Part shown: piece after piece, positions 1 to 17,127 of the stretch | Position numbering within the stretch: position 1 is the stretch's first letter | Layout: each line of letters begins with the position of its first letter | Assembly (NCBI GenBank): GCA_039588075.1 | Contig: JBDHAL010000001.1 | Coordinates: 7,027-71,026, forward strand | Source: Gemmatimonadota bacterium | GTDB taxonomy: Bacteria > Gemmatimonadota > Gemmatimonadetes > Palauibacterales > KS3-K002 | Direction of reading: 5' to 3' | DNA: 64,000 nucleotides | Made by a program: the position numbers and the translations under genes | Notes under the pieces: generated by a model | Databases searched by the model: none | The model's input: only the letters and a program-made list of their open reading frames with translations | What the model was told of the DNA's origin: nothing

Positions 1-524
1 CCGAGGTTCTTGAGATCGCCGGTGGAGTCCTTGATGCCGACGATGTTCGGGTGGCTGCCCAGTTCGGCCAGCAGGCCGGCGGTGATGTCGACGGGGACGA
101 ACTTGGGCACGTTATAGAGTATGACCGGCACCGGGACGGAATCGGCGACGACCTCGAAGTGGTGGCGAACGGTTTCGGGATCCATGCGGCCGCGGTAGTA
201 GGCCGGGGGCCGGACGAGAACGGCGTCGGCACCCGCCTCGGCGACGGCCCGCGACATGCGCGCCACGGCCCGCGTCGCTTCGGCGCCCGTACCGGCGATG
301 ACGGTTCGTTCCGGCGGCACCACATCGCGCGCCCACTCGACGAGCTGGACGATCTCGGCTTCGTCCAGCAAGGGCGCTTCGCCGGTCGAGCCGGCGATCA
401 CGAAGCCGTGAACGCCCGCTTCCAGCCAGGCCCGCATGTTGTCCCGGAAGGATACCGGTGCGATGGCGCCGGTGGCGCCGTCGAACGGCGTGGTCACCGG
501 CAGTATGACGCCTTCTGGCCTCAA
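1..524 (-). CDS. dapA: 4-hydroxy-tetrahydrodipicolinate synthase, partial (C-terminus runs off the window start)
   Basis: The minus-strand translation reads LRPEGVILPVTTPFDGATGAIAPVSF...GFVIAGSTGEAPLLDEAEI...VLVRPPAYY, which matches the DapA/NAL family. It starts at a TTG whose TTGA overlaps the pilT stop. Confidence 0.8.
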   Translation of the reverse strand, partial: MRPEGVILPVTTPFDGATGAIAPVSFRDNMRAWLEAGVHGFVIAGSTGEAPLLDEAEIVQLVEWARDVVPPERTVIAGTGAEATRAVARMSRAVAEAGADAVLVRPPAYYRGRMDPETVRHHFEVVADSVPVPVILYNVPKFVPVDITAGLLAELGSHPNIVGIKDSTGDLKNL

Positions 525-1612
525 ATCAGCTCCTGCACCAGGGAGTCTTCACCCAGCGTCTTCATCCGCAGCTCGAAGTCGGCCGGGTTGGATGCCGCGT
601 TCTTCGCTTCATCGTAGTCGACCAGCCCCTCCTTGACCAGCTGCATCAAGTTCTGGTCGAATGTCTGCATTCCGTACTGCTGCCGGCCTTCCTCCATCAG
701 GTCTCGGATCTCTCCCAGCTTCTCCGGCTCGAGGATGCAATCGCGAATCGCGCCTGTCACCACCATGATCTCGGAGGCCAGGACGCGGCCGCTCTCGTCC
801 GCCTTGGGCAACAGGCGCTGAGAAACCACGGCGGCCAGCGACTCGCCCAGGCGTACGCGCAGCATCTCCTGCTCCTCCGGCGGGAACACGGAGATGGTGC
901 GGCTGATGGTGGTCGCGGCGTCCGGCGTGTGCAGAGTGGAGATGACGAGGTGCCCGGTCTCGGTCGCCTTGATCGCCGTGTCGATCGTCTCGGTGTCGCG
1001 CATCTCACCGATCAGGATCACGTCGGGGTCCTCGCGCAACGCCGCCCGCAGGCCGGTCTGGAACGAGCTGGTATCGCTGCCGATCTCGCGCTGTGTGATC
1101 GAGCAGTTGATGTCGCGGTGCAGGTACTCGATGGGGTTCTCCAGCGTGATGATGTGGCGGCGGAAGTTCTGGTTGATGTGGTGGATCATCGCCGCCTGGG
1201 TCGTCGTCTTACCGGAGCCGGTAACGCCGGTCACCAGGATGAGGCCGCGGGGCAGTGACGAGATGTCTGGCAAGGCGGGCGGCAGGCCGAGCTCTTCAAA
1301 CTTGGGGATCTCGACCGGGATGATGCGCAGCACGATCATGAAGCTGCCGCGCTGTTTCAATATGTTGACGCGGAAGCGGCCGAGGCCCGGCACGCCCCAG
1401 GCGCAGTCGTAGTCGGTGATCCGGTCGATGTTGTTGCGATCGCGCTCGTTCGGGATGAGGCGCATGGCGACCTCGCGCGTCTGCTCCGGCGTCAGAAGCT
1501 GCTTGGTCATGGGGACCAACTCGCCGTGGATCCGAGCCCGGAACACATCGCCCGCCTTGATGTGAAGGTCGCTGGCCCCGCGCTCGATCGCCGTCCTCAG
1601 AATTTTTTCCAT
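521..1612 (-). CDS. pilT: type IV pilus twitching-motility ATPase PilT
   Basis: 363-aa ORF with a Walker A motif (GVTGSGKTTT), an Asp box and a His box, typical of the PilT/PilU family. Confidence 0.9.
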   Translation of the reverse strand: MEKILRTAIERGASDLHIKAGDVFRARIHGELVPMTKQLLTPEQTREVAMRLIPNERDRNNIDRITDYDCAWGVPGLGRFRVNILKQRGSFMIVLRIIPVEIPKFEELGLPPALPDISSLPRGLILVTGVTGSGKTTTQAAMIHHINQNFRRHIITLENPIEYLHRDINCSITQREIGSDTSSFQTGLRAALREDPDVILIGEMRDTETIDTAIKATETGHLVISTLHTPDAATTISRTISVFPPEEQEMLRVRLGESLAAVVSQRLLPKADESGRVLASEIMVVTGAIRDCILEPEKLGEIRDLMEEGRQQYGMQTFDQNLMQLVKEGLVDYDEAKNAASNPADFELRMKTLGEDSLVQELI

Positions 1613-1621
1613 AACCCGCTC

Positions 1622-2674
1622 CTAATAACCCGCTGCCTTGTTCACCCTGTTGAGCATCGGCTCTCCCGCCAGGTAGCGCCGCGCGTTCTCAACGATCAGT
1701 TCGGTCTCCCGCTCCCAGAAACGCGGGCTGACGCCGGCGATGTGCGGGGTCACGCAAACGTTGTCCAGTTCCCACAAGGGGCTCGCCTCGGGGAGTGGCT
1801 CCTCCAAAAAAACATCCAGCCCGGCTCCCCGGATCGACCGCGTCCGCAGCGCCTCGATCATCGCCGCCTCTTCCACGATCCTGCCGCGGGCCACGTTGAT
1901 CAGGACCGCCCCCTTCTTCATCACCGCCAGTTCGGCGGCGCCGATCAGCAGGTCGGTCTCCGCCGTGTGCGGGACGGTTAGCACCACGTAGTCGCTACCC
2001 GCCAGCAGGTCCCGGAGATCCTCCGGGCCCAACAGCCGATCGACCTCCCCAGGGGCCGCGCCCTCCGGGTGGCGCTTCAGGGCCCACACCTTCATCCCCA
2101 GGCCCCTGGCGCGCCGCCCCACTTCCCGGCCGATGCCGCCGTAGCCGATCACGCCGACCACGGCGCCCGCCAGCTCACTCACCGGGCCCGGGCCGCCGGC
2201 AACACGGTCACGGTCCCACAGAGCGCCGCGCCGCCGGCTCGCCTCCACCTGGTCCAGCCCGCGGGCGAAGTAGAACATCAACGCCACCACGTGCTCCGCC
2301 ACCGGCACACCGTGCGTGCCCGCCGAGTTGGTGAAGATCACGTCGCTCTTCGCCATCTCGCCGTGGAGCGAGCCGCCGACACCCGCCGCCCCCGAGTGCA
2401 CCCAGCGGAGCCGGCCCGAGGCCTCGAAGATCTCACGCGGGATGCCGAACCCCACGTAGACCTCCGCATCTGTCAAAGACTCTCGCAACGACGCCGTCAT
2501 CCGTAGCGCGCCGTCGCCGGAACCATCCGCCTCCTCCAAGACGCGGACCAGCTCCCAGTCTTTCGGAAGCGAGGCGCGAATCCGCCCCGTGTCCTCATCG
2601 GGCATGCACCACAAGGGGTGGCTGGAGGAGTACATGTCGATGACGAAACGGCGGGCGGGAGGGGGATCTGTCAT
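1622..2674 (-). CDS. D-isomer-specific 2-hydroxyacid dehydrogenase family protein (NAD-binding)
   Basis: Contains a GxGxxG Rossmann motif (GVIGYGGIGREVG) and a catalytic region typical of D-2-hydroxyacid dehydrogenases. The true start may be an internal Met. Confidence 0.75.
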   Translation of the reverse strand: MTDPPPARRFVIDMYSSSHPLWCMPDEDTGRIRASLPKDWELVRVLEEADGSGDGALRMTASLRESLTDAEVYVGFGIPREIFEASGRLRWVHSGAAGVGGSLHGEMAKSDVIFTNSAGTHGVPVAEHVVALMFYFARGLDQVEASRRRGALWDRDRVAGGPGPVSELAGAVVGVIGYGGIGREVGRRARGLGMKVWALKRHPEGAAPGEVDRLLGPEDLRDLLAGSDYVVLTVPHTAETDLLIGAAELAVMKKGAVLINVARGRIVEEAAMIEALRTRSIRGAGLDVFLEEPLPEASPLWELDNVCVTPHIAGVSPRFWERETELIVENARRYLAGEPMLNRVNKAAGY

Positions 2675-2710
2675 ATTATAATGCCGGCCGGCCTCGCGCG
2701 TGTAGGTTGG

Positions 2711-3391
2711 CTAATGAACCGTAATCCGTCTCACACCCTCCGATGCCGCAAGCTCTTTCAGCGCCACATCTCTCTTGGCCGCCGAGCCGTAGACCTCGTA
2801 GGAAGCTCGGAAGCGCTCGTGTTGTTTTTCGACTTTCGACGGCAAGGCGCGGAGCCCGTACTTGTTGAACAGTTGGGCGATATCTTCGAGCAACTCGGGA
2901 TTGGGATCCAGCGTCACATCCAGCTGGATGGACTTGCGACGCTTGAAGACGAATTCTTCGATCCAGCCGAGCAGGACGAGGGTACCGCCGACCAGGGCGG
3001 TGGTACCGACCGCCTCGACGTAGGCGTGGGCGCCCACTGCCAGACCTATGGCAGCGACGACCCACAGAGTCGCGGCGGTCGTGAGCCCGACGATCGAGCC
3101 TCGCTCGACCAGGATGGTGCCGGCACCGATGAAGCCGATACCGGTCACGACCTGCGCGGCGATGCGCCCGGGGTCGGCCGGCCCGACGACGGCCGTCGCC
3201 GCCACCGATCGGGAGAGATCCATTAGCAGGGCCGCGCCGACGCAAATCAGGATGTTCGTCCTCAGACCTGCCGGCTTGCCGGAAAACTCGCGCTCCAGCC
3301 CAATCAGGCCGCCGAGCACCGCCGCCAGGACCAGGCGGCCGAACAGGCCGAGCTGCAGCGTTTCGATCAGTCTCGGGTCTAGCCAATCCAC
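2711..3391 (-). CDS. mgtC: MgtC/SapB family membrane protein
   Basis: Hydrophobic N-terminal MgtC domain (ERE...GLRTN...GIGFIGAGTI) followed by a soluble C-terminal ACT-like domain. Confidence 0.75.
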   Translation of the reverse strand: MDWLDPRLIETLQLGLFGRLVLAAVLGGLIGLEREFSGKPAGLRTNILICVGAALLMDLSRSVAATAVVGPADPGRIAAQVVTGIGFIGAGTILVERGSIVGLTTAATLWVVAAIGLAVGAHAYVEAVGTTALVGGTLVLLGWIEEFVFKRRKSIQLDVTLDPNPELLEDIAQLFNKYGLRALPSKVEKQHERFRASYEVYGSAAKRDVALKELAASEGVRRITVH

Positions 3392-3413
3392 GATTTGACC
3401 CTCCTGATTGGCG

Positions 3414-4430
3414 TCAGTCTACTTCCGCGGGCCGGACCGCCGCCGTCGGTACGAGGCCCATGCGTTTCCGCACCTCGGTCATCGTCCGCCCGGCGATCTC
3501 GCGACAGTACCGCGCGCCGGCGCCCAGCACCTCGATGACGTACTCCGGGTTCTGCTTCAACTCGGCCGCCCGCTCGCGGATCGGCCGCAGTCTCTCGATC
3601 ACGTTGTCGGCCAAACGCCGCTTGCACTCGACGCAGCCGATCCCGGCGCTGCGACAGCCCGCGTCGGCCCACGCCACGTCCTCGTCACTCGAGAAATGCC
3701 GGTGCAGGCTGAAGATGTTGCAGACGTCCGGGTTGCCCGGATCGTCACGCCGCTTGCGCGCAGGGTCCGTCAGACCGATGCGGATCTTCTCCCACACCTC
3801 AACCGGCGACTCGAGCAGGCCGACCGTGTTGCCCAGCGACTTCGACATCTTCGCCTGGCCGTCCAGGCCCAGCACGCGCCGCACCTTGCCCACCAGCGCC
3901 TGGGGCTCCGGGAAATACTCGCCGTAGCGCGCGTTCCACTTGCGGGCGATCTCGCGCGTCAGCTCGACGTGCTGCACCTGATCCTCGCCGACCGGCACCG
4001 CGTCGGCATGGTAAAGCAGGATGTCCGCCGCCTGCAGCACCGGGTAGTTCAGAAGACCGGCCAACACCGATTCCTGTCGCACCGACTTGTCCTTGTACTG
4101 GGTCATCCGCTCCAGCTCGCCCAGCGGCGTCACCGTATTGAAGACCCAGGCCAGCTCGGCGTGCTCGGGTACCTGCGACTGGACGAAGATCGTGCACTTC
4201 TCAGGATCCAGCCCAGCCGCGATCAGCGTCAGCGCCATGTCATATACCCGGCTCGGCATCTCCGCTAAATCGTACGGCTGCGTGATGGCGTGAAGATCGA
4301 CGATGCTGAAGAAGCACTCGTACTTCTCCTGCAACTCGACCCAGTTCATCACCGCGCCCAGGTAATTGCCGATGTGCAGCTCGCCCGAGGGCTGGATTCC
4401 GCTGAAGACTATCTTCTTCTTATCTGCCAT
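3414..4430 (-). CDS. trpS: tryptophan--tRNA ligase
   Basis: Class I HIGN motif (GELHIGNYLG), a KMSKS motif (KMSKSLGN) and overall TrpS architecture. Confidence 0.95.
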   Translation of the reverse strand: MADKKKIVFSGIQPSGELHIGNYLGAVMNWVELQEKYECFFSIVDLHAITQPYDLAEMPSRVYDMALTLIAAGLDPEKCTIFVQSQVPEHAELAWVFNTVTPLGELERMTQYKDKSVRQESVLAGLLNYPVLQAADILLYHADAVPVGEDQVQHVELTREIARKWNARYGEYFPEPQALVGKVRRVLGLDGQAKMSKSLGNTVGLLESPVEVWEKIRIGLTDPARKRRDDPGNPDVCNIFSLHRHFSSDEDVAWADAGCRSAGIGCVECKRRLADNVIERLRPIRERAAELKQNPEYVIEVLGAGARYCREIAGRTMTEVRKRMGLVPTAAVRPAEVD

Positions 4431-4488
4431 ATCTCGCTTTCTCGTTACAGCAGCTTAAGTTACCCGGCGTCATCAACCCGATCAAGCG

Positions 4489-5289
4489 ATGAGCTCACTC
4501 GACGACCTGCTGCACGCCGCCCAGAACGCCGCCCGCGTCGCGGCCGATATCCACCGCCGCTCCGGCCGCCTCGATCCGGCTTCCTGGACCGAGAAAGGCC
4601 ACGCCGACTGGGTCAGCGAGATCGACACCGCCGCCGAGCAGGCCGCCGTCGCCGAGATCCGCGACGTCTTCCCCGATCACGCCATCGCCGCCGAGGAACG
4701 CGACTGGGGCGGCCCCGACCCGGAAGATGCCGAGGTCACCTGGTACATCGATCCCCTCGACGGCACCACAAACTTCCTCCACGGCTACCCCTACCACGCG
4801 GCCTCCGTCGCCGCCGTCGATGCCCTGGGACCCGCCGCCGCCGCCGTCATCAACTCCGCCCGCTGGGAGACCTTCCTCGCCCAACGCGGCGAAGGCGCCT
4901 CGATGGACGGTCACCCGATATCGGTCTCCAGCGTCGGCGAGCTCAAGCTCGCCCTCATCGGCACCGGGTTCCCATTCAAGAAGACGGAACTGCTCGATAC
5001 GTACCTGGCCCAGTTCCAAGCCATCCTGCCCCTGACCAGCGGCGTCCGCCGCACCGGCTCCGCCGCCATCGATCTCTGTGACCTGGCCTGCGGCCGCCTC
5101 GACGGCTTTTGGGAACTCCACCTGGCGCCGTGGGATGTCGCCGCGGGCGTTTTGATACTCAGAGAGGCGGGCGGCCTCATTACCGATCTTGATGGAGACG
5201 AGGATGTCGTGAAGCATGGCGGGTTCTTGGCGGGGAACCCTGGGGTTTATCGGGAGCTCAGGAGAGTTTTGTCGAACATCGAACATTGA
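4489..5289 (+). CDS. suhB: inositol monophosphatase family protein (SuhB-like)
   Basis: IMPase motifs: EERDWG metal-binding region, IDPLDGTTNF and WDVAAG. Confidence 0.85.
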   Translation: MSSLDDLLHAAQNAARVAADIHRRSGRLDPASWTEKGHADWVSEIDTAAEQAAVAEIRDVFPDHAIAAEERDWGGPDPEDAEVTWYIDPLDGTTNFLHGYPYHAASVAAVDALGPAAAAVINSARWETFLAQRGEGASMDGHPISVSSVGELKLALIGTGFPFKKTELLDTYLAQFQAILPLTSGVRRTGSAAIDLCDLACGRLDGFWELHLAPWDVAAGVLILREAGGLITDLDGDEDVVKHGGFLAGNPGVYRELRRVLSNIEH

Positions 5290-5486
5290 CCATCGTCCAT
5301 CGAACGTCGACCCGTACTTCCCGACTCCGAACATCGAACGTCGAGCAGCAAACATCGAACCTCGAAGCCCGTCAGCCCCCATGTACAACGCGTCAACGTT
5401 CAACGTGCGGTCCTCGATGTTCGACATCGAACGTCGGGCCGTATTCTCGACGTTCGATGAACGATGCTCGATGTTCAATGTTCACT
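5271..5486. repeat. about 215-bp imperfect palindromic element built from CGAACATCGAAC / GTTCGATGTTCG motifs, sitting between convergent genes
   Basis: The left arm 5271-5312 (GTCGAACATCGAACATTGACCATCGTCCATCGAACGTCGAC) is the near reverse complement of the right arm 5445-5486. There are at least six internal copies of the CGAAC(A/G)TCGA motif. Confidence 0.5.
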
Positions 5487-6723
5487 GCAAATAATCAAGG
5501 ATCCCCACATCCCCAAGCGCTCGCCGCTCAACCCACCTCTCCATGAACGGACTGTCGAACCCATAAAGGCCTTCCCCTCGCTTCACTACCAGATCCGCAT
5601 CGATCAGCGCCTCCAGCGCCGACGCTACGTAAGAGCTCCCCCGCAATCCGTACCGCTCCCGCGCCGCCTCCGAGTAAAGCTTCTTCTCCCCGGCGGCGAT
5701 CGCCCGCAGCACGTTCTGCTGAAGCGCCGTGCGCCGGTCCCATTCTCCACGCAGCAGATCGCCCTCGACATCCACCACGAGATCGAGGGCCCGCGCCGCG
5801 TCGCCTTCCACCAACTTCCCCGCCGCGGCACCTACCTGGAACGCGGCGCGCGCCAGCTGCACGATGTCCCGGGTCCGAGGACGCGCCAGCTCCACGATCC
5901 GCTTCCCCATACCCCCCGCATCCACACCGCGCGTCTCCATCCGCGACTCGATCCAGCGCGCCATGTGATCCTCGTCGATCGGGCCGAACGGCAGGAGCTC
6001 GAACAGCTTGAAGAACGCGCGGTTCTTCTCCGTCATCGCCAGCATCAAGCTTTCCTTCGAGCCGGCCAGAACGTAGCTGACGTGCTTGTGCTTCTGGATC
6101 ACCCCCCGAAGGTGCCATTCGGCGTCCGCGCCGCCGAATCGATGGATCTCCTGAAACTCGTCCAGCACCACCGCGATCGTCTTCTTGCGCGCCTCCGCCA
6201 GCCGGTCTATCGCGTCCAGCGTCTCGGCCAGCGTCACCCGCTGCTCCTCCAGCGGCGCGTTCCGACGCGCCACGTCCAATATCAGCGTCGGGTTCCCCGA
6301 CCCCGCCTCGTACACCACCCGGACCCCGACCCGCAGGTGGTTCACCAGGTCTCCCACCACGTTCTCCCACGTCGGCCTCAACTGGCGCGCCGCCGCCTGC
6401 AGGATCCGCGTCGCCATGTCCGCCAGCACCGTCGTCGCCGACATGTCCGCCATCACCGCCGGCTGCCGCTTCCGCCGCGCACGCTGCACCGCCGTCTCCA
6501 GCGCCGACGACTTCCCCATCCCCCGCGGACCGTACACCAGTAGCTTCGACTGCGCCGCGCCTAATCCGCCCTCGATCCGGCGAAGCTCCGACGCCCGATC
6601 GGTGAAGTACTCCCCGACTACCGTGCCTCCGACTCGAAACGGGTTCACCAGCCCGGCTCCGGGCCGCGGCGGCAAGAGACCGGCGCCAACAAGCGCGGCC
6701 CGGCTGCCCGTAATCCACGCCAC
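5482..6723 (-). CDS. ATP-binding protein (archaeal-type ATPase domain with C-terminal DUF234-like region)
   Basis: Walker A (GPRGMGKSS), Walker B (VVLDEFQE) and the characteristic DUF234 tail. Confidence 0.7.
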   Translation of the reverse strand: MAWITGSRAALVGAGLLPPRPGAGLVNPFRVGGTVVGEYFTDRASELRRIEGGLGAAQSKLLVYGPRGMGKSSALETAVQRARRKRQPAVMADMSATTVLADMATRILQAAARQLRPTWENVVGDLVNHLRVGVRVVYEAGSGNPTLILDVARRNAPLEEQRVTLAETLDAIDRLAEARKKTIAVVLDEFQEIHRFGGADAEWHLRGVIQKHKHVSYVLAGSKESLMLAMTEKNRAFFKLFELLPFGPIDEDHMARWIESRMETRGVDAGGMGKRIVELARPRTRDIVQLARAAFQVGAAAGKLVEGDAARALDLVVDVEGDLLRGEWDRRTALQQNVLRAIAAGEKKLYSEAARERYGLRGSSYVASALEALIDADLVVKRGEGLYGFDSPFMERWVERRALGDVGILDYLQ

Positions 6724-6894
6724 ATAGCGAGGTAAGTGATCACTGACTCAGTTATTAATTAGCTAATATGATAAGTGTGCTATTAGTTACTACCATAATG
6801 ACTCGCTGAGTCGATCGCAAGCGGCCGGCTCGCACTACATCTGGCGGCGACCGAATGGTTATCTTTCGCGTGGCAACCGAGGCGGGGAGGGATA
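6724..6894. promoter_or_regulatory. AT-rich divergent intergenic region with TGACTCAG / GCTGAGTC palindromes; likely promoters/operator
   Basis: GC content drops sharply here (ttattaattagctaatatgataagtgtgctattag). Inverted repeats tcactgactcagtta ... gactcgctgagtcga. The downstream RBS GGGGAGGGATAATG precedes the 6895 start. Confidence 0.3.
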
Positions 6895-7590
6895 ATGGAC
6901 GACGGCCGGCCGACGCGGCTCCCCACGGACGAGTTGGAACCTCGCAGCTGGCATCTCGCGACGTGGTTCTACGCACTGCTTTACGCCCTATCGCGGAAGC
7001 GGGAGGTGCAGGGCGTGTCGGTCGCGGCGCTGAAGGTGGGCGATCACGATCAGCAGGCCTCGCTGCGCAGTGTGGACGAGGCGCTGCAGCTGATCAGCGA
7101 GCACGACCCGCGGTGTTTCGCACGGCTGCAGAAGCACGTACGCAGCATCTGGGTGGGTCCGATCCCGAACTATGCGCGCGGCCAGTGGATAGAGGACCTT
7201 CGGATGTGCATGCTACGAGATTCGTACGTGAGCTCGGATGAGACGTCGGTAGCGCACGTCGCATCGATCATCGTGCACGAGTCGACGCACGCGTGGCTGG
7301 AGCAGGCGGGGTTCGGATACGACGAGCGGGTTCGGGCGCGAGTCGAGCGCATCTGCATCAGGTCACAACTCGCGTTCGCCCGGAAGCATCCCGATGGCGC
7401 GCGGCTGATTGAAGCACTCGAGGAAAGGCTGGCGCGGGACGATGCCTGGTGGTCGGACGCCCGGTTGCGGAACACGCAGCTGGGAGTATTGGAGGAGATG
7501 GGAACGCCGGGCTGGTTCAGGCGAATGATAGACCGAATGACACGGAACCGACCGGTGGGACCTAAGCGGCCCGCCAGTTCAGCAGAATGA
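6895..7590 (+). CDS. hypothetical protein with an HExxH (HESTH) zinc-metallopeptidase-like motif
   Basis: 231-aa ORF with a strong Shine-Dalgarno sequence. It has the single motif IIVHESTHAWLE and no other family I recognise. Confidence 0.5.
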   Translation: MDDGRPTRLPTDELEPRSWHLATWFYALLYALSRKREVQGVSVAALKVGDHDQQASLRSVDEALQLISEHDPRCFARLQKHVRSIWVGPIPNYARGQWIEDLRMCMLRDSYVSSDETSVAHVASIIVHESTHAWLEQAGFGYDERVRARVERICIRSQLAFARKHPDGARLIEALEERLARDDAWWSDARLRNTQLGVLEEMGTPGWFRRMIDRMTRNRPVGPKRPASSAE

Positions 7591-8932
7591 GCGTGCTGAC
7601 GGCCAGCCAGATGGCGACCAGGGCGCCGAAAAGCCAGTACTCGATGGACCGGAACCTCTGGCGCCCTTTCTTGCCGTGGAACCATGCGCCGACGAACACG
7701 GCGGGCAAGCCGGTGAGCACGGCGACCAGCGTCAGACGGTAGGACACCTCAGGCAGGATGTCGCGGTCGGCCAACTGGTCGGAGACCTGCAGCGCGCCCC
7801 AGCCGATGAGCAGGTACCCCAACATGATTTGCGGCAAGTAACGCTCTTTGATCTTCGAGAAGAGCCCGGTCGATCCGACGCCGTGAATCGGCGGGACCGA
7901 GGGGATCGGAGTCGCGTCGCCGGAAGACAGCCCGGCCAGGCGCCGGGCCACGTCGGCGGCGCTGGGCCGATGCTCGGGCTCCTTCTGAAGGCAGCGGCCG
8001 AGCACCTGCTCCAACTCCGCATCGACGTCTGCACGAAGTTCGGAGAGCTTTTTCGGCTCCTGCTGAACGTGGGCCGTGAACATCTCACGCTTCGAGCTTG
8101 CCTCGTAGGGCCCGCGTCCGGTCAGCAACTCGTAGCCAAGTAACCCGAGCGCGTACACGTCGCTGCGCTCAGTCACCTCGCCGCCCATCAACTGTTCGGG
8201 GCTCATGTAGCTGGGGTCGCCGACCAGCTCGCCCGTCCTCGTGATACGCTGCGGCTGGCTGCTGTCGCCTCGTGCCAGGATCCCCGCGATGCCGAAATCG
8301 CTGAGCAGCGCCCGGCCCGACTCCTCCTCGTAAAGCACGTTGTCCGGCCGGATATCCCGGTGCACGAAACCCTTCTTGTGCGCCGCGGCGACCGCGGACG
8401 AGACCTCGGCGATCACGCGCCGCGCCTCATCGACGGCCAGCTTCCCGTGCGCCTGGATCCGGCTCGCCATCGTCGTCCCCTGCACGTACTGCATGACGAT
8501 GTAGGGGAGGTCGTTGGACAACCTGCCGACTCCGTAAACCGCGACGATGTTGGGGTGCGAGAGAGAGGCCGCCGACTGGGCCTCGCGCTCGAAGCGGGCG
8601 CGGGCCTGCGCGTCCCGGGCAAGCTTGGGAGACAGGACCTTCACGGCCACGAGGCGCTTGAGCTGCGATTCCCGCGCCAGATAGACGTTCCCCATCGAGC
8701 CGCGGCCGAGCCGCCGCACCACCTGCAGCTCCGGCGCCAGCTCCTTGCGGAGCAACTCTTCCAGCTCGTCCGCCGACCCCTTCCCCGAATGCTGCTCCGG
8801 GGGAGGAGTCACATCCGGATCGAGCTCGTTATCGCTCCGATCGCCGGGGGTCTCGTCAGACGACATATCCGGGTTCAGCCCGCCAGGTGTCCATGATTTG
8901 GGTTTTTTGCGGAATTCTTCGCACCGCTGCAC
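7562..8932 (-). CDS. serine/threonine protein kinase with C-terminal transmembrane segments
   Basis: Hanks-type kinase motifs (GRGSMGNVY, VAVK, HRDIRPDNVL, DFG, SPE) followed by two C-terminal hydrophobic helices. The start could alternatively be at 8865. Confidence 0.85.
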   Translation of the reverse strand: MQRCEEFRKKPKSWTPGGLNPDMSSDETPGDRSDNELDPDVTPPPEQHSGKGSADELEELLRKELAPELQVVRRLGRGSMGNVYLARESQLKRLVAVKVLSPKLARDAQARARFEREAQSAASLSHPNIVAVYGVGRLSNDLPYIVMQYVQGTTMASRIQAHGKLAVDEARRVIAEVSSAVAAAHKKGFVHRDIRPDNVLYEEESGRALLSDFGIAGILARGDSSQPQRITRTGELVGDPSYMSPEQLMGGEVTERSDVYALGLLGYELLTGRGPYEASSKREMFTAHVQQEPKKLSELRADVDAELEQVLGRCLQKEPEHRPSAADVARRLAGLSSGDATPIPSVPPIHGVGSTGLFSKIKERYLPQIMLGYLLIGWGALQVSDQLADRDILPEVSYRLTLVAVLTGLPAVFVGAWFHGKKGRQRFRSIEYWLFGALVAIWLAVSTLILLNWRAA

Positions 8933-8977
8933 CGCGGAGGTTACGCCGCACCGCTCGGCTTAGCAAGGGTGGGATCG

Positions 8978-9113
8978 GATGGGGACTGTGTCGATCACGT
9001 CAACGACAACGACAATGAGAAGCGAGAATCCTGCGGTCCCGTTTTCTCGCTTCTCGCTGTGGTTGTCGCTGTCGTTATCGTTGTCGTTGTCGTAATCGAC
9101 ACAGTCCCCATCC
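8978..9113. repeat. palindromic (AACGAC)n-GAGAAGCGAGAA element, copy 1, immediately 3' of the BNR gene
   Basis: ggatggggactgtgtcgat...(aacgac)n...gagaagcgagaa | ttctcgcttctc...(gtcgtt)n...atcgacacagtccccatcc. This is a near-perfect inverted repeat of about 136 bp. Confidence 0.7.
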
Positions 9114-9116
9114 TTA

Positions 9117-12100
9117 CTAGCCCTCCCGAATAATCACAGCCGGGACCCCGTGCCCCGCGACCATCTCGTTGAACGCCGGGATCTCGGTGGCCACGACCTC
9201 GGCCAGCCGGTCGAGCTGGACCTGGAGCTGGGCCGACAGCTCCTCGTAGACGTCGTGCGACTGCCGGGTCGGCTTTCCGTCTCCCCTGCTGACCACGCCT
9301 GACAGCGCCGCGATCTTGTTGTTCAACTTGATCGGGAAGTTGAGCGGGTCCTGTCGGCTACGGTTCTTGGTCTGGTAGACTTCGTTCTCGATCTCCGACA
9401 GGGTCTTCTTGATCTGCTCCGCCTGCTCCGAAACCTCTTCGGCGTACGGCTGGCCCTTCGTCCGCTCCACGGCACCGTCGATCTGGCCGCGGATGTCGCG
9501 GATGCGCGTCACGGCATCGTTCGCCTCGCTGACCCGATCGCGGATCCGGATGAGGAACTCGAACTGCTCCTGCAGATCCGCCTCGCTGGCGGAGACTCGC
9601 GGGTCCTTCATCACTGTGAACGACTCCGTGTACGTCTCATCGCCCGCGCTGAGCCGCACCTGATACGACCCCGGCGCCGCCCGCGGGCCCGCCGTGCTTC
9701 CGCCCCACATGATCAAGCCGGGGAAGTCGCTCGCGTCGGGATAGCGGAGATTCCATACGAAGCGGTTCATCCCGGCGCTCTTGGGCACCGCCGCTCCGCC
9801 GGGGCGTCCCGGACCACCCGGGCCGCCGGCGCGGCCACCCCGGCCCTCGCTGGTGTACTCGCGGATCAGCGTGCCGTCTTCCTGGAGGAACTCCAGCTTC
9901 ACCGCGCCGCCCGGCTCGTCCTTCAGGTAGTAGTAAACCACGGCGCCGCTGGGCGGGTTGGCGCCAACGCCGGAAGCGCCGCCTCCGAAGCCACCGAAGC
10001 CGCCCAGCCGGTAGGTGTCGCGCGGCTTGAACAGGTGAGCGTCGGCGGCGGCGACCTCGTCGCTCAACTGGCGGAGCGGCGTGAGGTCGTCGAGAATCCA
10101 AAACGAGCGGCCGTGGGTGCCGAGCACCAGGTCGTCGTCCTTGACGACCATGTCTCGGATCGGCACGACGGGCAAGTTCAGCTGCAACGACTGCCAGCGC
10201 TCGCCGTCGTCGAACGAGACGTAGACGCCGAACTCGCCGCCGGCGTAGAGCAGGCCGCGCCGCTCCGGGTCCTCGCGCACGACCCGGATGTAGTGACCGT
10301 CGGGAATGCCGCGGACGATCTTCTCCCAGCTGTTCCCGTAATCTTCCGTCTTGAATATGTAGGGAGCGAAGTCATCCAGCTTGTAGCGGTTCACCGCGAC
10401 GTACGCGACGCCCGGCTGGTGGGCCGACTCGTCGATGATGCTGACCAGCCCCCACTCCGGCATGTCCCTCGGCGTCACGTTCTCCCAGCCCTGACCGCCG
10501 TCGCGGGTTACGTGGACCAACCCATCGTCGGAGCCAACCCAGATGACGTCGCGGTCGTGCTGTGACGGTACCAGCGCGAAGATCGTGTTGTAGTACTCGA
10601 CGCTGGTGTTGTCCTTCGTGATTGGGCCGCCCGACGGGCCCTGCTTGCTCTTGTCGTTGCGCGTCAGGTCCGGGCTGATCGCGTCCCAAGTTTGACCTTC
10701 GTCGTGCGTTCGGAAGACGACGTTGCCGCCGATGTAGAGCTCGTTCGGGTCGAACGGCGACAAGACGATCGGGAACGTCCACTGGAACCGGTACCGGAGC
10801 TCCGCGGCTCCCCAACCCATGGGATTGTCGGGCCAGGCGTTGATCGCCTGCGTTTGGCCGCTGTGCCGGTCGAAACGCGTCAGGAAACCGTCGTAGCTCC
10901 CGGCATACACGACATCCGGATCGTCGGGCCGCGGCGCGATATAGCCGCTCTCACCGCCGCCCACCGCATACCAGTCTTGATCGGTTATCCCGGAGCCGCC
11001 GGTGCGACTGGCGATGCACATCGTGCTGTTGTCCTGCTGCGCGCCGCACACCTTGTACGGGAAGTGATCCGTTGTGGTCACGTGATAGAACTGGGCTGTA
11101 GGCTGATTGTCCTGTCGCGTCCAGGTTCTGCCACCGTTGTACGTCACGTTGGCGCCGCCGTCGTTGCCTTCGACCATGCGGTGCGCGTTGTTCGGGTCGA
11201 TCCAAAGGTCGTGGTTGTCCCCGTGCGGAGTACCGATGGTTTCGTAGGTGCGGCCACCATCGGTCGACTTGTAGAAGCGCACGTTCAGGACGTAGACCGT
11301 ATTCTCGTTCTCGGTATCGGCGTAGATGTGGGTGTAGTACCAGGCGCGCTGCCGCAGGCTGCGATCGTCGTTCACCCGCGCCCACGTCGCGCCGGCGTCG
11401 TCCGATCGGAACACGCCGCCCTCATCGGCCTCGACTATCGCCCAAACTCGCTCCGAGTTGACCGGCGAAATCGTCACGCCGATTCGGCCCAGCATGCCCT
11501 CCGGAAGGCCGTCGTTGCGGCTGATCTCAGTCCAGCTGTCGCCGCCGTCGGTTGACTTGAACAGACCACCGCCCGGACCGCCGCTCTCCATCCCCCAGGG
11601 CATGCGCCGCGCCTGCCAGAACGCCGCGTACAGGACCCGCGGGTTGTTCGGATCCATAGCCAGGTCGACGGCCCCGGTGTTCTCATCTCTGTAGAGGATC
11701 TTCTCCCAATTGACTCCTCCGTCCTTCGACCTGAAGACGCCACGCATCTCGTTGGGTCCGAAGGCGTGGCCGAGCACCGCGACGTACACGATGTCCGCGT
11801 CGTTGGGATGGACCACGACGCCGCCGATCTGACCGGCGTCCCGCAGCCCGGCCCGCTTCCACGTCTTGCCCGCATCCATCGACACGTACATCCCGTCGCC
11901 CGGCGACGTGTTGCCGCGTATGCACGCCTCGCCCATCCCCACGTACACCACGTTCGGATCCGACGGCGCAACGGCTATCGCTCCGACCGAGCCCGCCTCC
12001 AGGTAATCGTCGGTGACCGGCTCCCAAATCGCTCCGCCGTCCACCGTCTTCCACACGCCACCACCCGTGGCGCCCATGTAGTAGACGTACGGCTGGTCCA

Positions 12101-12251
12101 CCACACCGGCGACGGCCACCACTCGTCCGCCCCGGTACGGTCCGATGTTCCGCCACTCGAGGGCGTCGAACAGGCTCTCGTCGTAGGCCTGAGCGCTGAG
12201 GTTGCTCACGGACAAGATCATCGCGACAGAGGCGATGGCGATTTGTTTCAT
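9117..12251 (-). CDS. secreted BNR/Asp-box repeat protein (sortilin/VPS10- or GH74-like beta-propellers)
   Basis: 1044-aa ORF with a signal peptide. It contains many S-x-D-x-G-x-T-W BNR motifs. It is paralogous to 58165-61494. Confidence 0.85.
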   Translation of the reverse strand: MKQIAIASVAMILSVSNLSAQAYDESLFDALEWRNIGPYRGGRVVAVAGVVDQPYVYYMGATGGGVWKTVDGGAIWEPVTDDYLEAGSVGAIAVAPSDPNVVYVGMGEACIRGNTSPGDGMYVSMDAGKTWKRAGLRDAGQIGGVVVHPNDADIVYVAVLGHAFGPNEMRGVFRSKDGGVNWEKILYRDENTGAVDLAMDPNNPRVLYAAFWQARRMPWGMESGGPGGGLFKSTDGGDSWTEISRNDGLPEGMLGRIGVTISPVNSERVWAIVEADEGGVFRSDDAGATWARVNDDRSLRQRAWYYTHIYADTENENTVYVLNVRFYKSTDGGRTYETIGTPHGDNHDLWIDPNNAHRMVEGNDGGANVTYNGGRTWTRQDNQPTAQFYHVTTTDHFPYKVCGAQQDNSTMCIASRTGGSGITDQDWYAVGGGESGYIAPRPDDPDVVYAGSYDGFLTRFDRHSGQTQAINAWPDNPMGWGAAELRYRFQWTFPIVLSPFDPNELYIGGNVVFRTHDEGQTWDAISPDLTRNDKSKQGPSGGPITKDNTSVEYYNTIFALVPSQHDRDVIWVGSDDGLVHVTRDGGQGWENVTPRDMPEWGLVSIIDESAHQPGVAYVAVNRYKLDDFAPYIFKTEDYGNSWEKIVRGIPDGHYIRVVREDPERRGLLYAGGEFGVYVSFDDGERWQSLQLNLPVVPIRDMVVKDDDLVLGTHGRSFWILDDLTPLRQLSDEVAAADAHLFKPRDTYRLGGFGGFGGGASGVGANPPSGAVVYYYLKDEPGGAVKLEFLQEDGTLIREYTSEGRGGRAGGPGGPGRPGGAAVPKSAGMNRFVWNLRYPDASDFPGLIMWGGSTAGPRAAPGSYQVRLSAGDETYTESFTVMKDPRVSASEADLQEQFEFLIRIRDRVSEANDAVTRIRDIRGQIDGAVERTKGQPYAEEVSEQAEQIKKTLSEIENEVYQTKNRSRQDPLNFPIKLNNKIAALSGVVSRGDGKPTRQSHDVYEELSAQLQVQLDRLAEVVATEIPAFNEMVAGHGVPAVIIREG

Positions 12252-12261
12252 GTTGGACCCT

Positions 12262-12360
12262 CCGGTTAGAAGGTAATCGGTGACCGGTGACCGGTAAGTT
12301 CGAAATTCGAGATCATGAGTTACCGGTAACCGGTCACCGGTTACCGATTACCTTCAGTCA
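12262..12360. repeat. GGT[AG]ACCGGT-based palindrome (hairpin; probably terminator of the upstream gene and repeat family member)
   Basis: ccggttagaaggtaatcggtgaccggtgaccggtaag ... cttaccggtaaccggtcaccggttaccgattaccttc, a near-perfect inverted repeat. Confidence 0.5.
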
Positions 12361-12363
12361 GAC

Positions 12364-12912
12364 CTACGGCCACAGCCAGCCAAACACCCCACCGGTCAGC
12401 AACCCAAAGACCAACCCATCGATCACACTTTTGAGAGTGCTGCTCCAGGAGAAGCCGTACCAGATCGATGTGGGGATCAGGGCCGCGCTGTAGGCGAGGA
12501 ACGCGACGGTACCCAGCACGCGGAAAACGTGGAGGTAGTCTGTTCCCGCCGCGATCGTGACGTATCCGATATAGGCGACCATGAACGAGATGCCGAGATT
12601 GTAGACGAAATAGAAACCGAGCGACTTGCCCATGTTGGGCGCGCCCATGACGACCATGGAGCCGATCGGGCCTTCCGTGGCCTTCTGCCGTTCCTCCTTG
12701 TCGCGAGACATCATGGCCGCCGGGAACATGTACTGGCCGCGACCGAGCCCGCTGCTGCGTATCGCGTTGAGCAGCGAATCCTCGTCGGGGATCTTCGCCC
12801 AGTCGGACTTGTGGTGCGGCAGCACCATCCAGGCAACGAACGCCGCGAAGAAGACGATCACAGCGGACAGCAGAATCGGTAACCAGAGGGAAACGAGGCT
12901 GACTTGTTCCAT
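12364..12912 (-). CDS. hypothetical integral membrane protein
   Basis: Start chosen at MEQVSLVSLWLP, which has a GGGAGG Shine-Dalgarno sequence. Four to five predicted transmembrane helices. The longer 225-aa ORF start lacks an RBS. Confidence 0.55.
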   Translation of the reverse strand: MEQVSLVSLWLPILLSAVIVFFAAFVAWMVLPHHKSDWAKIPDEDSLLNAIRSSGLGRGQYMFPAAMMSRDKEERQKATEGPIGSMVVMGAPNMGKSLGFYFVYNLGISFMVAYIGYVTIAAGTDYLHVFRVLGTVAFLAYSAALIPTSIWYGFSWSSTLKSVIDGLVFGLLTGGVFGWLWP

Positions 12913-13134
12913 GCTGACCTCCCGGGGGAAAGAGGGAACCGGCACCGCACCAGGCCGGCCCAGCTGGTCCGCGGCCGCCCTGTAGGACTTCTGGCTGTTC
13001 TTGAGACGCTGAATTATACGGCGGTTGATGCGTGTGCGCATTCCCTGCTAGAATAGGCCCTCGATGACGCCACCCTCGCCATCCCGGTACAGGGCGCCAT
13101 CGGCTGGTGGGCTTTCAGGACACTGAAGCGGTCG

Positions 13135-14118
13135 ATGATGGCCACGATCGCCGAGGATCTGCGGACGATCCTGGACGCCGACGTCACGGCGCTGACGATC
13201 TGGCTGCAGTCTCAGGTCGTGGCGGCCGGTGTCGCCGCCGAGGAACCGCTGGTGAGGGGCGCCGTGGAACGTCTGATCGACCTGGAGGAGCGGATCGGCG
13301 TCGACCGGGCGGCGCTTCTCGCTTCGCCAGCCCAGTCAGAGCTTCGCACTTACCTGGAACCCCTGATGCGGGCGAACGAGTACCTCGGTTTCGCCGTGAT
13401 CGACCGACAGGGCAAGATCCTGGCCTCTCGCTACGACGATGCGGTTGGAAGCCCGCTGAGCGCCAGCACATCCAGCCTCACCGAATTGGCGGAAAAGGGC
13501 GTCGCCACCGTTTCGCATCCGTTCATCCCGGAAACGTCGCTGCGCGACAGGAACGGCGTCTTGCAGCCCGGCGACCCGGCGATGGTCGCGATGGCGCCGG
13601 TGCGCAATGCCGACGGTGCCGTGGTTGCCAGCCTGCTTTTCAGAATGGACCCGGAGGATCAGTTCACGCGCATCTTGAGGACGGCGCGCTACGGCGAGAG
13701 TGGAGAGACCTACGCCTTCAACGCCAACGGCTTGCTGCTCTCGGAGAGCCGCTTTGACGATGAGCTGCGTGAACTGGGGCTCATCGCCGCAGACAGTCGA
13801 TCCCACAGCATTCTCCAGGTCCAGATCCGCGACCCCGGCGGCAATATGCTGGACGGGTTCCGGTCCAGCGTCCCGCGCGACGAGCAGCCGCTGACGCGGA
13901 TGGCCGCCGCGGCAATGCGCGGTCGCGACGGTGTCGATGTGGACGGCTACCGTGACTACCGGGGCGTGCCGGTGGTGGGCGCGTGGCCTTGGCTGGGGGT
14001 CGAACACCCGGATCGGCCGGAGGAAAGGCCGAAGGATGGGTCAGGGTCGACGGATTCGGGGAAGTTGGCGCCGACAATGGCGGTGGCGCTGTCAGACAGG
14101 GATTTATCGAACGAGTGA
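13135..14118 (+). CDS. periplasmic Cache-like sensor domain protein, apparently truncated (possible remnant of a chemoreceptor/sensor kinase)
   Basis: Sensor-domain-like sequence (YLGFAVIDRQGKILASR...YRGVPVVGAWPWLGVE) ends abruptly just before MITE copy 1, and no transmembrane or signalling domain follows. Confidence 0.45.
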   Translation: MMATIAEDLRTILDADVTALTIWLQSQVVAAGVAAEEPLVRGAVERLIDLEERIGVDRAALLASPAQSELRTYLEPLMRANEYLGFAVIDRQGKILASRYDDAVGSPLSASTSSLTELAEKGVATVSHPFIPETSLRDRNGVLQPGDPAMVAMAPVRNADGAVVASLLFRMDPEDQFTRILRTARYGESGETYAFNANGLLLSESRFDDELRELGLIAADSRSHSILQVQIRDPGGNMLDGFRSSVPRDEQPLTRMAAAAMRGRDGVDVDGYRDYRGVPVVGAWPWLGVEHPDRPEERPKDGSGSTDSGKLAPTMAVALSDRDLSNE

Positions 14119-14149
14119 ATTCGAAATTAGCGAATTCAAATCAGCGAAT

Positions 14150-14360
14150 TCGCAAGGAATTTTGAACACCGCACACCGAACACCGCCTTTCGAAGGTTAC
14201 ACGACAAGGCTTGATCACTAATCACTGAGATCGAATCGCTGATGATCAGGGTGCCCGTGGAGCCTTGGTCTCTTCAGCATCAGAGATTCGGTCTTGATGA
14301 TCAATGATTGAAGTGCGCCCTTCGAAAGGCGGTGTTCGGTGTGCGGTGTTCGAAATTGCC
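14150..14360. mobile_element. MITE copy 1 (about 210 bp) with about 32-bp terminal inverted repeats GCAATTTCGAACACCGCACACCGAACACCGCC; reverse orientation relative to copies 2 and 3
   Basis: Left end gaattttgaacaccgcacaccgaacaccgcctttcgaagg; right end ccttcgaaaggcggtgttcggtgtgcggtgttcgaaattgc. It has no coding capacity. Confidence 0.65.
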
Positions 14361-14377
14361 CTCGCCATTCTTAATTC

Positions 14378-15814
14378 CTATTGCATCTCAAACGCCAAAA
14401 ACATCAGTTGCCCACGACGCTCCACCTGAAGCACGACCGGCGCACCCGATCTCACGGCTTCAATCTGCGCGCGCAGATCGGAAAGGCTCGTGACCGGCTC
14501 GCGGTTCATCATGTGGATCACGTCACCCGGGACCAGCGCGACCCGGCCATAGGACGCGTCTGGTGCGCGAGCCGCGACCAGCACGCCTTGAGTACTTCGC
14601 AGGTTTGGGAGTAGCGCCGCGATCTGAGGCGTGAGGTCGATCACCAGGATGCCGAGGCGCGGAATCAGGTTCTCCTCCGGCGTCACCATGGGGGAGAAGC
14701 GATTCAAATCGTCCGGCCGCTCGTAGACGGCGACCGATACCGTACGCGTCTCTTCCCCGCGCAGGATCTCCAGCGAGACGATTTCGCCCACGGGCCGGCC
14801 GTACAGGCCGACGTCGAATTGACGGCCGTTCTCCATCACCTTGCCGTTCATGCTCAGCACGATGTCGCCGATGCGCAGCCCGGCCTGGAATGCAGGGGCG
14901 TTGGGATAGACGTCGCCGAGAACCACGCCCCACTCGCGGGTGATACCCAGGCCGGCCGCCAGCGTCGGAGTGACCGTCTGGGCATGCACGCCAATCACTC
15001 CGCGCCGCACGTAACCCGAATCTCTGATCTGTTGATAGACGTTGCGGACGATATTGCTCGGCGCCGCGAACCCGAGGCCCTCGCTGCCGCCCGACTGCGA
15101 AAAGATCAGCGTGTTGATCCCGACCACTTCGCCCATCGCGTTGACCAACGGTCCGCCGCTGTTGCCCGGATTGATCGGCGCGTCGGTCTGGATGTAGATC
15201 ATCGGGTCTTCCGGCCGCAGTTGCCGCGCGACGGCGCTCACCACGCCCATCGTCACCGAGTTTTCCAAACCCAGCGGCCCGCCGAACGCGAAGACCAGCT
15301 GACCCGTCCGAACGTCGTCCGAGTCACTCAATCGGACGGCCGGAAGCCCCGTCTCGGCGACTTTGAGGACGGCGAGGTCGGTCTCGCGATCGACCCCGAC
15401 GATCTGGGCGCCGACGATCCGGCCCTGCGGTTTGAGTATCGATTCGCCCGGCGGCGCGTCTTCCGCCGGAACCGCCAGACGTACCTGCACCCGCGTGGCA
15501 CCTTCCACGACGTGGAAGTTGGTGATGATGTAGCCGTCCGGGTCGAGGATCACACCCGACCCTCCAACCTGCCGCCGGCTCAGCAGGCCCGAGCCCGGAG
15601 CGTCGGTGGCCTGCAGCGGCTGGTAGCCCGTCGCCAGAATCTGCACCACGGCCGGGTTCACCCGCTCCGATAGCGCCTCGAACGATTCGCTGAGCCCAGC
15701 CAGCGCGGTCAGCGCCCGGTCTCTCGATCCCCGTTGCGCCGCCGCCTCCGAGGGGAGGATCAGGACGAAACACACGATCACCGCAAAGAACGTCAGGCCG
15801 ATCTTTCGATTCAT
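14378..15814 (-). CDS. degP: DegP/HtrA-family periplasmic serine endoprotease with two PDZ domains
   Basis: Catalytic triad context (HVVEGA, D, GNSGGPL) and two PDZ regions. Start chosen at MNRKIGLTFF, which has a GGAAGAGAG RBS. Confidence 0.9.
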   Translation of the reverse strand: MNRKIGLTFFAVIVCFVLILPSEAAAQRGSRDRALTALAGLSESFEALSERVNPAVVQILATGYQPLQATDAPGSGLLSRRQVGGSGVILDPDGYIITNFHVVEGATRVQVRLAVPAEDAPPGESILKPQGRIVGAQIVGVDRETDLAVLKVAETGLPAVRLSDSDDVRTGQLVFAFGGPLGLENSVTMGVVSAVARQLRPEDPMIYIQTDAPINPGNSGGPLVNAMGEVVGINTLIFSQSGGSEGLGFAAPSNIVRNVYQQIRDSGYVRRGVIGVHAQTVTPTLAAGLGITREWGVVLGDVYPNAPAFQAGLRIGDIVLSMNGKVMENGRQFDVGLYGRPVGEIVSLEILRGEETRTVSVAVYERPDDLNRFSPMVTPEENLIPRLGILVIDLTPQIAALLPNLRSTQGVLVAARAPDASYGRVALVPGDVIHMMNREPVTSLSDLRAQIEAVRSGAPVVLQVERRGQLMFLAFEMQ

Positions 15815-15927
15815 GTTCCCACTCTCTTCCTGCAACTCGTCGTCCGTTGGCATGGTCAGTGTAGTGGGAAGGATACTGCAGGTGTCTGATGCGTGCCAGT
15901 TGGCTGGACGCCGCTTGACACACCGCG

Positions 15928-15957
15928 CGTCCGCGTTCTATGCATAGCCGATAGCGC
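15928..15957 (+). promoter_or_regulatory. candidate sigma70-like promoter for the RND efflux operon
   Basis: TTGACA, then a 17-nt spacer, then cTATGCAT, lying in the divergent degP/acrA intergenic region. Confidence 0.3.
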
Positions 15958-15999
15958 AAAGCATGTAGCACGTAGCCGTTCGGCGCCCACACTTCCCCG

Positions 16000-17115: not shown

Positions 17116-17127
17116 GGCGAGCCAACA

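Follow-up and report, generated by a model that had tools for sequence, protein, structure and literature searches.

What fills the space between two convergent genes of a Gemmatimonadota bacterium (Palauibacterales, KS3-K002), and does it serve the genes that end in it? The locus lies in a 64,000-nucleotide stretch of contig JBDHAL010000001.1 (assembly GCA_039588075.1, positions 7,027 to 71,026), hereafter called the window, with all coordinates counted from its first letter. Here, a suhB-like inositol monophosphatase gene and a gene for a STAND/AAA-type ATPase run towards each other and meet at an imperfect, nested palindrome of approximately 215 bp (window 5271-5486). A first-pass annotation, made from the sequence alone, had described the palindrome and had listed a bidirectional terminator, a miniature inverted-repeat transposable element (MITE) and an iterated protein-binding site as its possible identities, with a CGAAC core that matches a LexA half-site. 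It missed the main point, which is that the arms of the palindrome are heptanucleotide tandem repeats, and this places the element in the known class of inverted pairs of heptameric simple sequence repeats (SSRs).

An inverted-repeat search identified outer arms of 37 nt (5274-5310 and 5447-5483) with 89% complementarity, and in the predicted folds their pairing extends to about 5270-5313 and 5444-5487, which bears out the near-complementary arms that had been placed at 5271-5312 and 5445-5486. An inner arm pair (5329-5365 and 5388-5424) shows a complementarity of 73-81%. Tandem Repeats Finder (TRF) reported a period of 7 with 13.7 copies at 5272-5366, and a parse of both arms resolved them into degenerate runs of the heptamer TCGAACR. 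Approximately 20 heptamer units in converging orientation are contained in the element, about half of which deviate from TCGAACR, and the period-7 GAAC pattern is found on the plus strand at 5274 and 5329 and on the minus strand at 5466. The six or more CGAAC(A/G)TCGA units of the first-pass annotation were recovered as six copies of CGAACRTCGA within 5273-5456; the entire window contains eight, compared with 1.06 expected, and none of 100 shuffled sequences reached this number. Furthermore, CATCGAACGTCG occurs five times in the element with at most one mismatch. The sequence TCGATGTTCGACATCGA, previously considered palindromic, does possess inverted symmetry, which is interrupted by TCG between its two 7-nt arms and is therefore not perfect.

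Either strand of the element is predicted to form one long imperfect hairpin of approximately 100 bp. For positions 5260-5500, the RNA fold of the plus strand reaches -98.9 kcal/mol (z -7.7) and that of the minus strand -120.7 kcal/mol (z -8.3), and the DNA fold of the same region has a value of -50.8 (z -4.9), with no shuffled sequence being as stable in any of the three cases. The stable secondary structure anticipated by the first-pass annotation is thus present on both strands. Open reading frames (ORFs) within the element are spurious overlaps only.

The internal organization of the element follows the order arm-spacer-arm-loop-arm'-(short arm + spacer)-arm'. Both inner arms are copies of outer ones in direct orientation; the left matches its outer counterpart at 79% over 38 nt, and the right matches part of its own counterpart at 77%. 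In addition, a segment of approximately 27 nt, composed of CATCGAACGTCG and a loop-like CCGTAYT..CGAC sequence, is present in direct orientation at 5298 and 5425, and the second of these copies folds into a small hairpin of its own (5425-5436 and 5448-5459) with 12 nt of 100% complementarity and an 11-nt loop. In a metagenome scan with this internal 27-nt unit (CATCGAACGTCGNNCCGTA...CGAC), the sole match fell in coding DNA and was due to chance. The irregular units TYGASCA and TCGTYCA occupy the same register in the left and right outer arms, which argues that the outer arms are copies of each other instead of having arisen separately by slippage; their unit-for-unit mirroring suggests inverted duplication or arm-to-arm copying. 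The nested, compound layout is what would result from an insertion or duplication within an older, simpler hairpin. The element would have arisen by slippage combined with inverted duplication, or else by transposition.

The element occupies the whole suhB/ATPase spacer. The TGA stop codons of suhB (5287-5289) and of the ATPase gene (5482-5484, minus strand) both lie within its arms, in agreement with the earlier statement that both genes end here. The last five codons of suhB (SNIEH) and its stop codon derive from the first three heptamers of the element, and an alignment with 15 homologues showed that the SuhB tail beyond ...LRRVL is variable. In the right arm, the first heptamer begins with the stop codon of the ATPase gene. 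Both TGA codons are located in variant units (TTGACCA for suhB and GTGAACA for the ATPase gene); arrays of perfect CGAACAT or CGAACGT units are free of stop codons in all six frames. Beyond the stem, the sequence continues with CUGCAAAUAAUC on the plus strand and CAAAACUCUCC on the minus strand. A terminator scan detected no outward-facing terminator-like site at either end of the element, the nearest matches being one inside it on the minus strand (5371-5356) and one within suhB. Promoter-like sites were not found in or beside the element. There were no tRNA or tmRNA genes, and Rfam 15 yielded no match to the window at gathering score, none at E<=1 for 5150-5600 and none in 18 related loci.

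The named relatives recovered in a SuhB homologue search belong to Gemmatimonadota, Gemmatimonadales and Longimicrobiales, the closest sharing at most 80% SuhB identity. One of them, L125 (CP070815.1, complete genome, SuhB 76% identical), retains the gene order TrpRS, suhB, ATPase_2, Pkinase and Sortilin-Vps10. Its suhB/ATPase spacer of 236 nt contains zero CGAACAT units and shows no detectable homology to that of the window (alignment score 13, compared with a shuffle mean of 10 and maximum of 16). As the syntenic spacer lacks the element and is unrelated in sequence, the element is lineage-specific. The C-terminus of the ATPase reads ...DVGIILT* in L125 and ...DVGILDYLQ* in the window. Two further relatives carry other genes downstream of suhB.

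With arms made of heptanucleotide tandem repeats, the element is a member of the class of heptameric SSR inverted pairs, and every structural trait of this class was found in it. The GGGAATC repeats of Xanthomonas number approximately 185 per genome, with 70-75 converging pairs able to form stem-loops; they follow an ORF at an average distance of 28 nt, are scarce between divergent ORFs and mostly transcribed, and vary between close relatives, and the study describing them found no function (PMC4692102). The GGGGAYT repeats of Nostoc represent further heptameric SSR pairs (Rehm et al. 2015, PMC4692102). Like these pairs (PMC4692102) and the cyanobacterial STRR sequences, the element consists of degenerate 7-nt units in converging arrays capable of forming a stem-loop. 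It likewise shares their intergenic location tens of nucleotides or less past an ORF, their rarity between divergent ORFs and, probably, the fast turnover of length and sequence between related genomes. Unlike them, its unit TCGAACR lacks G-tracts and therefore has no G-quadruplex potential, its host belongs to the Gemmatimonadota, the pair in this copy is doubled and nested and overlaps two stop codons, and TCGAACR is found in many phyla and in a phage.

Heptanucleotides are reported to be the most over-represented long SSRs in prokaryotes, for which polymerase slippage has been proposed (Mrazek 2007, as cited in PMC4679880 and PMC4692102). Geobacter metallireducens contains families of four GGACCGG or five MTYCTGA units, the latter drawn as looped pairs (PMC2700814), and the TAACTGA arrays of Beggiatoaceae are mostly direct, in sense orientation and positioned just upstream of start codons (PMC4679880). 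Both were proposed by their authors as regulatory or RNA elements, without experiment (PMC2700814, PMC4679880). The element has in common with them that multi-copy heptamer arrays lie in non-coding DNA; its units differ from those of Geobacter and Beggiatoaceae, and unlike the TAACTGA arrays it is inverted and located at 3' ends. A literature search for GAACATCGAAC retrieved only unrelated primer sequences. Heptanucleotide repeats were already known as over-represented elements without assigned function, to which the TCGAACR hairpins, their chirality and their A/T flanks are added here.

A genome scan with GTSGAACATYGAACATYGA, conducted with one genome per species, yielded at least 120 loci, compared with approximately 35 expected by chance according to our own estimate. 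The matches listed, to which the counts of this paragraph refer, are real and mostly intergenic arrays at loci of 35-68% GC, and derive from Verrucomicrobiota, Lentisphaerota, Kiritimatiellota, Planctomycetota, Desulfobacterota, Bacteroidota, Acidobacteriota, Gemmatimonadota and others. Period 7 dominates their tandem repeats (394 of approximately 900 arrays), with other units making up roughly half. The 209 GAAC-type arrays form 48 pairs of the arrangement 5'-(GAAC)n...(GTTC)n-3' and five of the reverse. By crude ORF calls, the hairpins are situated in 13 convergent, 18 tandem and two divergent spacers, and unpaired arrays in 16 convergent and five divergent ones. Furthermore, the 12 nt upstream of the hairpins contain 4.8 A (2.8 expected; 2.4 in the reverse control) and the 12 nt downstream 5.0 T (2.8 expected; 2.3 in the reverse control). 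This succession of A-tract, hairpin and T-tract is the layout of bidirectional intrinsic terminators.

Loops are conserved among the copies within a Lentisphaerae metagenome-assembled genome (MAG) and across Desulfobacterota MAGs, and copies differ by whole heptamers. Shared loops together with whole-unit differences indicate the behaviour of dispersed, MITE-like families, and the differences in whole units among homologous copies of related families point to slippage; heptamer inverted pairs behave as dispersed MITE-like families, the arms of which gain and lose whole units by slippage. A viral scan returned 14 loci, five of which (L127, L128, L129, L131 and L140) are pieces of a single contig, IMGVR_UViG_3300012347_000612. 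This phage contig of 40.5 kb has genes for a large terminase, a portal protein and a head protease. It contains at least nine pattern matches and at least 16 intergenic TCGAACR arrays, several of them in complete hairpins whose purine-rich loop (GAAGTGAAGAGGAAGAGGAAGAGAATGAAGAAGCGCGAAGCATATTCC) is conserved.

Two hairpin families, each shared by MAGs of different species, were observed in Desulfobacterota, the first (L030, L036, L091, L116 and L119) with conserved loops and the second (L007, L012, L024, L107 and L117) with conserved loops and upstream flanks. Both are flanked by AAAAG...CTTTT, and the right arms of homologous copies differ by one GTTCGAT unit. In Opitutaceae MAG_27 (L105, 5454-5563), a TCGAACR hairpin is apparently located inside a long ORF, which may represent an in-frame insertion like the Rickettsia palindromic elements or a wrong ORF call.

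Approximately ten further hairpins composed of 6- or 7-nt repeats were identified in the window (Table 1). They are located 0-50 nt from stop codons, distances that rest on gene calls based on the GC content of third codon positions, and in convergent or tandem spacers, with a possible exception at 41255-41435, where the call of the neighbouring gene is ambiguous and the spacer may be divergent. Hairpin-plus-U terminators are not enriched, as 10 were found in window positions 1-20000 compared with 10.5 expected. This GC-rich genome carries simple-repeat hairpins at many gene ends with no enrichment of canonical terminators.

MITEs and other palindromic repeats of bacteria (Correia/NEMIS, ERIC, Nezha and RPE, as well as REP, BIME and REPIN sequences) are non-coding, 100-250 bp long and bounded by inverted arms. 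They form hairpins when co-transcribed, are tolerated at the 3' ends of genes, sometimes change C-termini and occur in clusters of alternating orientation. The element resembles a MITE in its inverted arms, its length and its lack of coding capacity, and the MITE reading of the first-pass annotation stays alive through the dispersed families with conserved loops formed by its relatives. It departs from MITEs in that its arms are simple-sequence arrays and not unique terminal inverted repeats (TIRs). Furthermore, no target-site duplication was found, since the flanks ...GAGTTTTG and CTGCAAATAA... are complementary to each other, extending the palindrome, and are not direct repeats; a second copy of the arm is missing from the 64-kb window, and no transposase, RAYT/Y1_Tnp or ribbon-helix-helix (RHH) domain was detected among the 15 window genes scanned. 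Repetitive extragenic palindromic (REP) units are imperfect palindromes of 20-40 nt with a conserved 5' tetranucleotide that are mobilised by the Y1 transposase RAYT. A REP/BIME/REPIN identity was considered and rejected, as the arm unit of 38 nt consists of successive heptamers and lacks palindromic symmetry, and no Y1_Tnp occurs among the scanned genes.

We lean towards the view that the element, a lineage-specific heptamer palindrome, acts as a hairpin that terminates transcription, insulates the two genes or stabilises 3' ends. Two homologous arm copies of approximately 38 nt in direct orientation followed by two inverted ones fill the spacer. In the proposed mechanism, each of the convergent transcripts would run into the element and fold into the imperfect hairpin of approximately 100 bp. 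This hairpin could pose a barrier independent of a U-tract, stopping or slowing read-through into the opposing gene, and might shield the 3' end of the mRNA from exonucleases. A barrier function is suggested by the terminator-like flanks of the relatives, by the lack of an excess of canonical terminators and by the hairpins that abut stop codons throughout the window; transcription through the element, and termination or stabilisation by it, are inferred. The bidirectional terminator of the first-pass annotation therefore survives as a live reading by virtue of the flanks of the relatives and of a stable stem-loop placed exactly between convergent stop codons. It does not hold in its canonical form, as a U-tract is missing after the stem on both strands; the stem of approximately 100 bp also contrasts with the roughly 5-15 bp typical of intrinsic terminators.

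Several observations weigh against this role, and some of them also favour the main alternative, in which the element has the same identity as a MITE- or REP-like heptamer palindrome and is devoid of function. Replication slippage, inverted duplication or transposition would then have left it behind as a selfish or neutral by-product, which does no harm between convergent gene ends. We regard this alternative as possible but rather doubtful. No U-tract follows the stem on either strand of this copy, and hairpins without U-tracts are poor intrinsic terminators in vitro; the immediate flanks (TTTTG upstream and CAAATAA downstream) are even the reverse of the A/T pattern of the class. The arm is not repeated elsewhere in the window, and the orthologous spacer of L125, from which the element is absent and which has no detectable homology, is weakly structured (z -1.9). 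Among the matches listed, unpaired arrays in tandem spacers show no transcribed-strand bias (22 versus 19), and mismatches compatible with G-U pairing in 24 hairpins are not significantly biased (37 sense versus 28 antisense) and thus give no sign of selection at the RNA level, with three sense and nine antisense in the element itself. Much of the distribution is explained if a selfish or neutral repeat is simply tolerated at 3' ends, and the depletion at promoters could reflect just that. The absence of function is also favoured by the variation of units from site to site in the window and in related Gemmatimonadota, by the open frames of perfect arrays, which make an overlap with gene ends harmless, and by the literature, which found no function for the class of heptameric SSRs (PMC4692102, PMC4679880). 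Neutrality alone can hardly explain the A-tract/hairpin/T-tract layout of the class and its chirality of 48 to 5 among the matches listed; the presence of at least nine copies in a compact phage genome of 40 kb and the position of the window hairpins almost exactly at stop codons throughout also weigh against it.

The other explanations are less probable still. Approximately 20 converging 7-bp units might constitute a binding array on double-stranded DNA, occupied cooperatively by, for example, a nucleoid-associated protein, a transposase specific for sub-terminal repeats or an RHH protein of the type of omega of pSM19035. The recurrence of the TCGAACR heptamer across 35% to 68% GC speaks for this, and so do the GAAC heptamers in the TIRs of the MITE-like family of the window, which would fit a shared end-binding protein. 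We consider this improbable, because about half of the units are degenerate, the site is at 3' ends and not at a promoter, and the 15 scanned window genes contain no transposase or RHH match; the 739 ORFs around the arrays likewise contain no family in more than eight loci among the matches listed (at least 120 loci). Neighbouring hairpins use the unrelated units CGGTGAC, CGACAA, GAGAAGC and ACGAGT and related Gemmatimonadota GGTAGTG and GGGAGTA, which argues against a single sequence-specific partner. A non-coding RNA locus, the long hairpin of which would be transcribed and then processed by an enzyme such as RNase III to give a small RNA or an antisense regulator, would agree with the very stable folds and with convergent transcription that would yield such an RNA. 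It is very unlikely in view of the Rfam and promoter results reported above, the lack of conservation in the syntenic L125 and the nature of the sequence as a low-complexity repeat with mismatches free of strand-specific bias. The first-pass annotation had pointed to CGAAC as the half-site of the Cheo-type LexA box, and LexA half-sites conferring SOS control would be consistent with the abundance of CGAAC and GTTCG pentamers. This idea has next to no probability, since the dyad CGAAC-N4-GTTCG is absent from the element at up to one mismatch, the three dyads of the window all lie elsewhere (4.6 expected by chance), adjoining pentamers run in the opposite order as GTTCG-N4-CGAAC (5418-5431), and both genes have the site at their 3' ends. 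Finally, the source is a metagenome-assembled contig, so that an assembly or amplification artefact such as a chimeric inverted duplication was considered. We give it hardly any credence: arms of 73-89% complementarity in a nested arrangement are no clean fold-back, the flanking genes are intact, the order TrpRS-suhB-ATPase-kinase-sortilin matches that of L125, and many similar hairpins are found in the window and in independent assemblies.

At this locus, the practical consequence of the element is small and consists in the change of the last five residues of SuhB, and the element may keep the two convergent genes insulated. Taken alone, the locus is of modest interest; what is worth following is the recurrence of TCGAACR hairpins across many phyla and in a phage, with fixed chirality and terminator-like A/T flanks. 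If such hairpins end or insulate transcripts, they would help to explain the persistence of 7-nt repeats and the way in which lineages with few hairpin-plus-U terminators delimit their genes. We speculate further, at rather long reach, that all TCGAACR hairpins might belong to a single superfamily that spreads horizontally and consists of portable bidirectional terminators or insulators, small and non-autonomous, carried by phage among other vectors and distributed over at least eight bacterial phyla. Its members would share a fixed chirality (A-tract, GAAC arm, loop, GTTC arm, T-tract) and stems that change in 7-nt steps, some machinery would mobilise them or copy one arm onto the other, and the Gemmatimonadota copy would be a degenerate, nested member.

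Table 1. Features of the palindromic element, its flanking genes and other repeat structures of the window.
Feature	Position	Strand	Evidence or remark
suhB-like inositol monophosphatase gene	4489-5289	+	Pfam Inositol_P, E=1.6e-56
Outer left arm, six heptamers: TCGAACA TCGAACA TTGACCA TCGTCCA TCGAACG TCGACCC	5271-5313	.	Inverted repeat, TRF, parse
Direct-repeat copy 1, CATCGAACGTCG then loop-like ACCCGTACTTCCCGAC	5298-5325	+	Approximately 83% match to copy 2 by reading
Inner left arm: CGAACAT CGAACGT CGAGCAG CAAACAT CGAACCT CGAAG	5328-5367	.	Direct and inverted repeats, parse
Central spacer, apical region of the long hairpin	5368-5392	.	Folds
Inner right arm, GTTC orientation, pairs with 5329-5365	5393-5424	.	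Repeats, folds
Direct-repeat copy 2, CATCGAACGTCG then GGCCGTATTCTCGAC	5425-5451	+	Direct repeat
Outer right arm, reverse complement: GTGAACA TTGAACA TCGAGCA TCGTTCA TCGAACG TCGAGAA	5447-5486	.	Mirrors left arm unit by unit
STAND/AAA-type ATPase gene	5482-6723	-	Pfam ATPase_2, AAA_22, AAA_16 and nSTAND1 match this frame only
CGACAA hexamer and GAGAAGC heptamer hairpin family	8977-9113, 21844-21937, 56740-56780, 58042-58150		Conserved unique ends GGGGACTGTGTCGAT / ATCGACACAGTCCCC
(CGGTGAC)n hairpin, 96% complementarity	12269-12355		Adjoins stop codon
Lone (CGGTAAC)4 array	51040-51067		Adjoins stop codon
ACGAGT hexamer hairpin, pyrimidine-rich arm 5'	53109-53209		Adjoins stop codon
MITE-like element, three copies of approximately 180-200 bp	14158-14357, 41255-41435, 45424-45610		TIRs of approximately 45 nt

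The TIRs of the MITE-like element (AATTTCGAACACCGCACACCGAACACCGCCTT...) are composed of CGAACAC/CGCACAC heptamers, so that the CGAAC core does recur in them as stated in the first-pass annotation. Two of the three copies are homologous over their full length, and the third has only the arms in common with them. Within the window, the period-7 GAAC pattern is confined to the 5271-5486 element and these three sets of TIRs, and in every case the GAAC arm lies 5' and the GTTC arm 3'.

In the (CGACAA)n/(GAGAAGC)n family, copies and arms differ by gaps of 18 or 24 nt, which correspond to whole units; the two halves are swapped in one copy, and another is a half copy. Where the window carries the hexamer hairpin at 8977-9113, L125 has a heptamer array of another unit, ACCGAYC, in the same spacer (13927-13957), at the Sortilin-Vps10 stop codon. 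The related Gemmatimonadota locus L123 contains the inverted pairs GGTAGTG/TACCCAC and GGGAGTA/CTCCCCA at gene ends (13050-13157 and 15852-15924). Furthermore, a (TCC)54 repeat, alternatively described as six copies of a 27-nt unit, is located at 34775-34937 of the window inside a minus-strand ORF (34765-35709), where its translation would give a low-complexity stretch that is acidic or rich in glycine.

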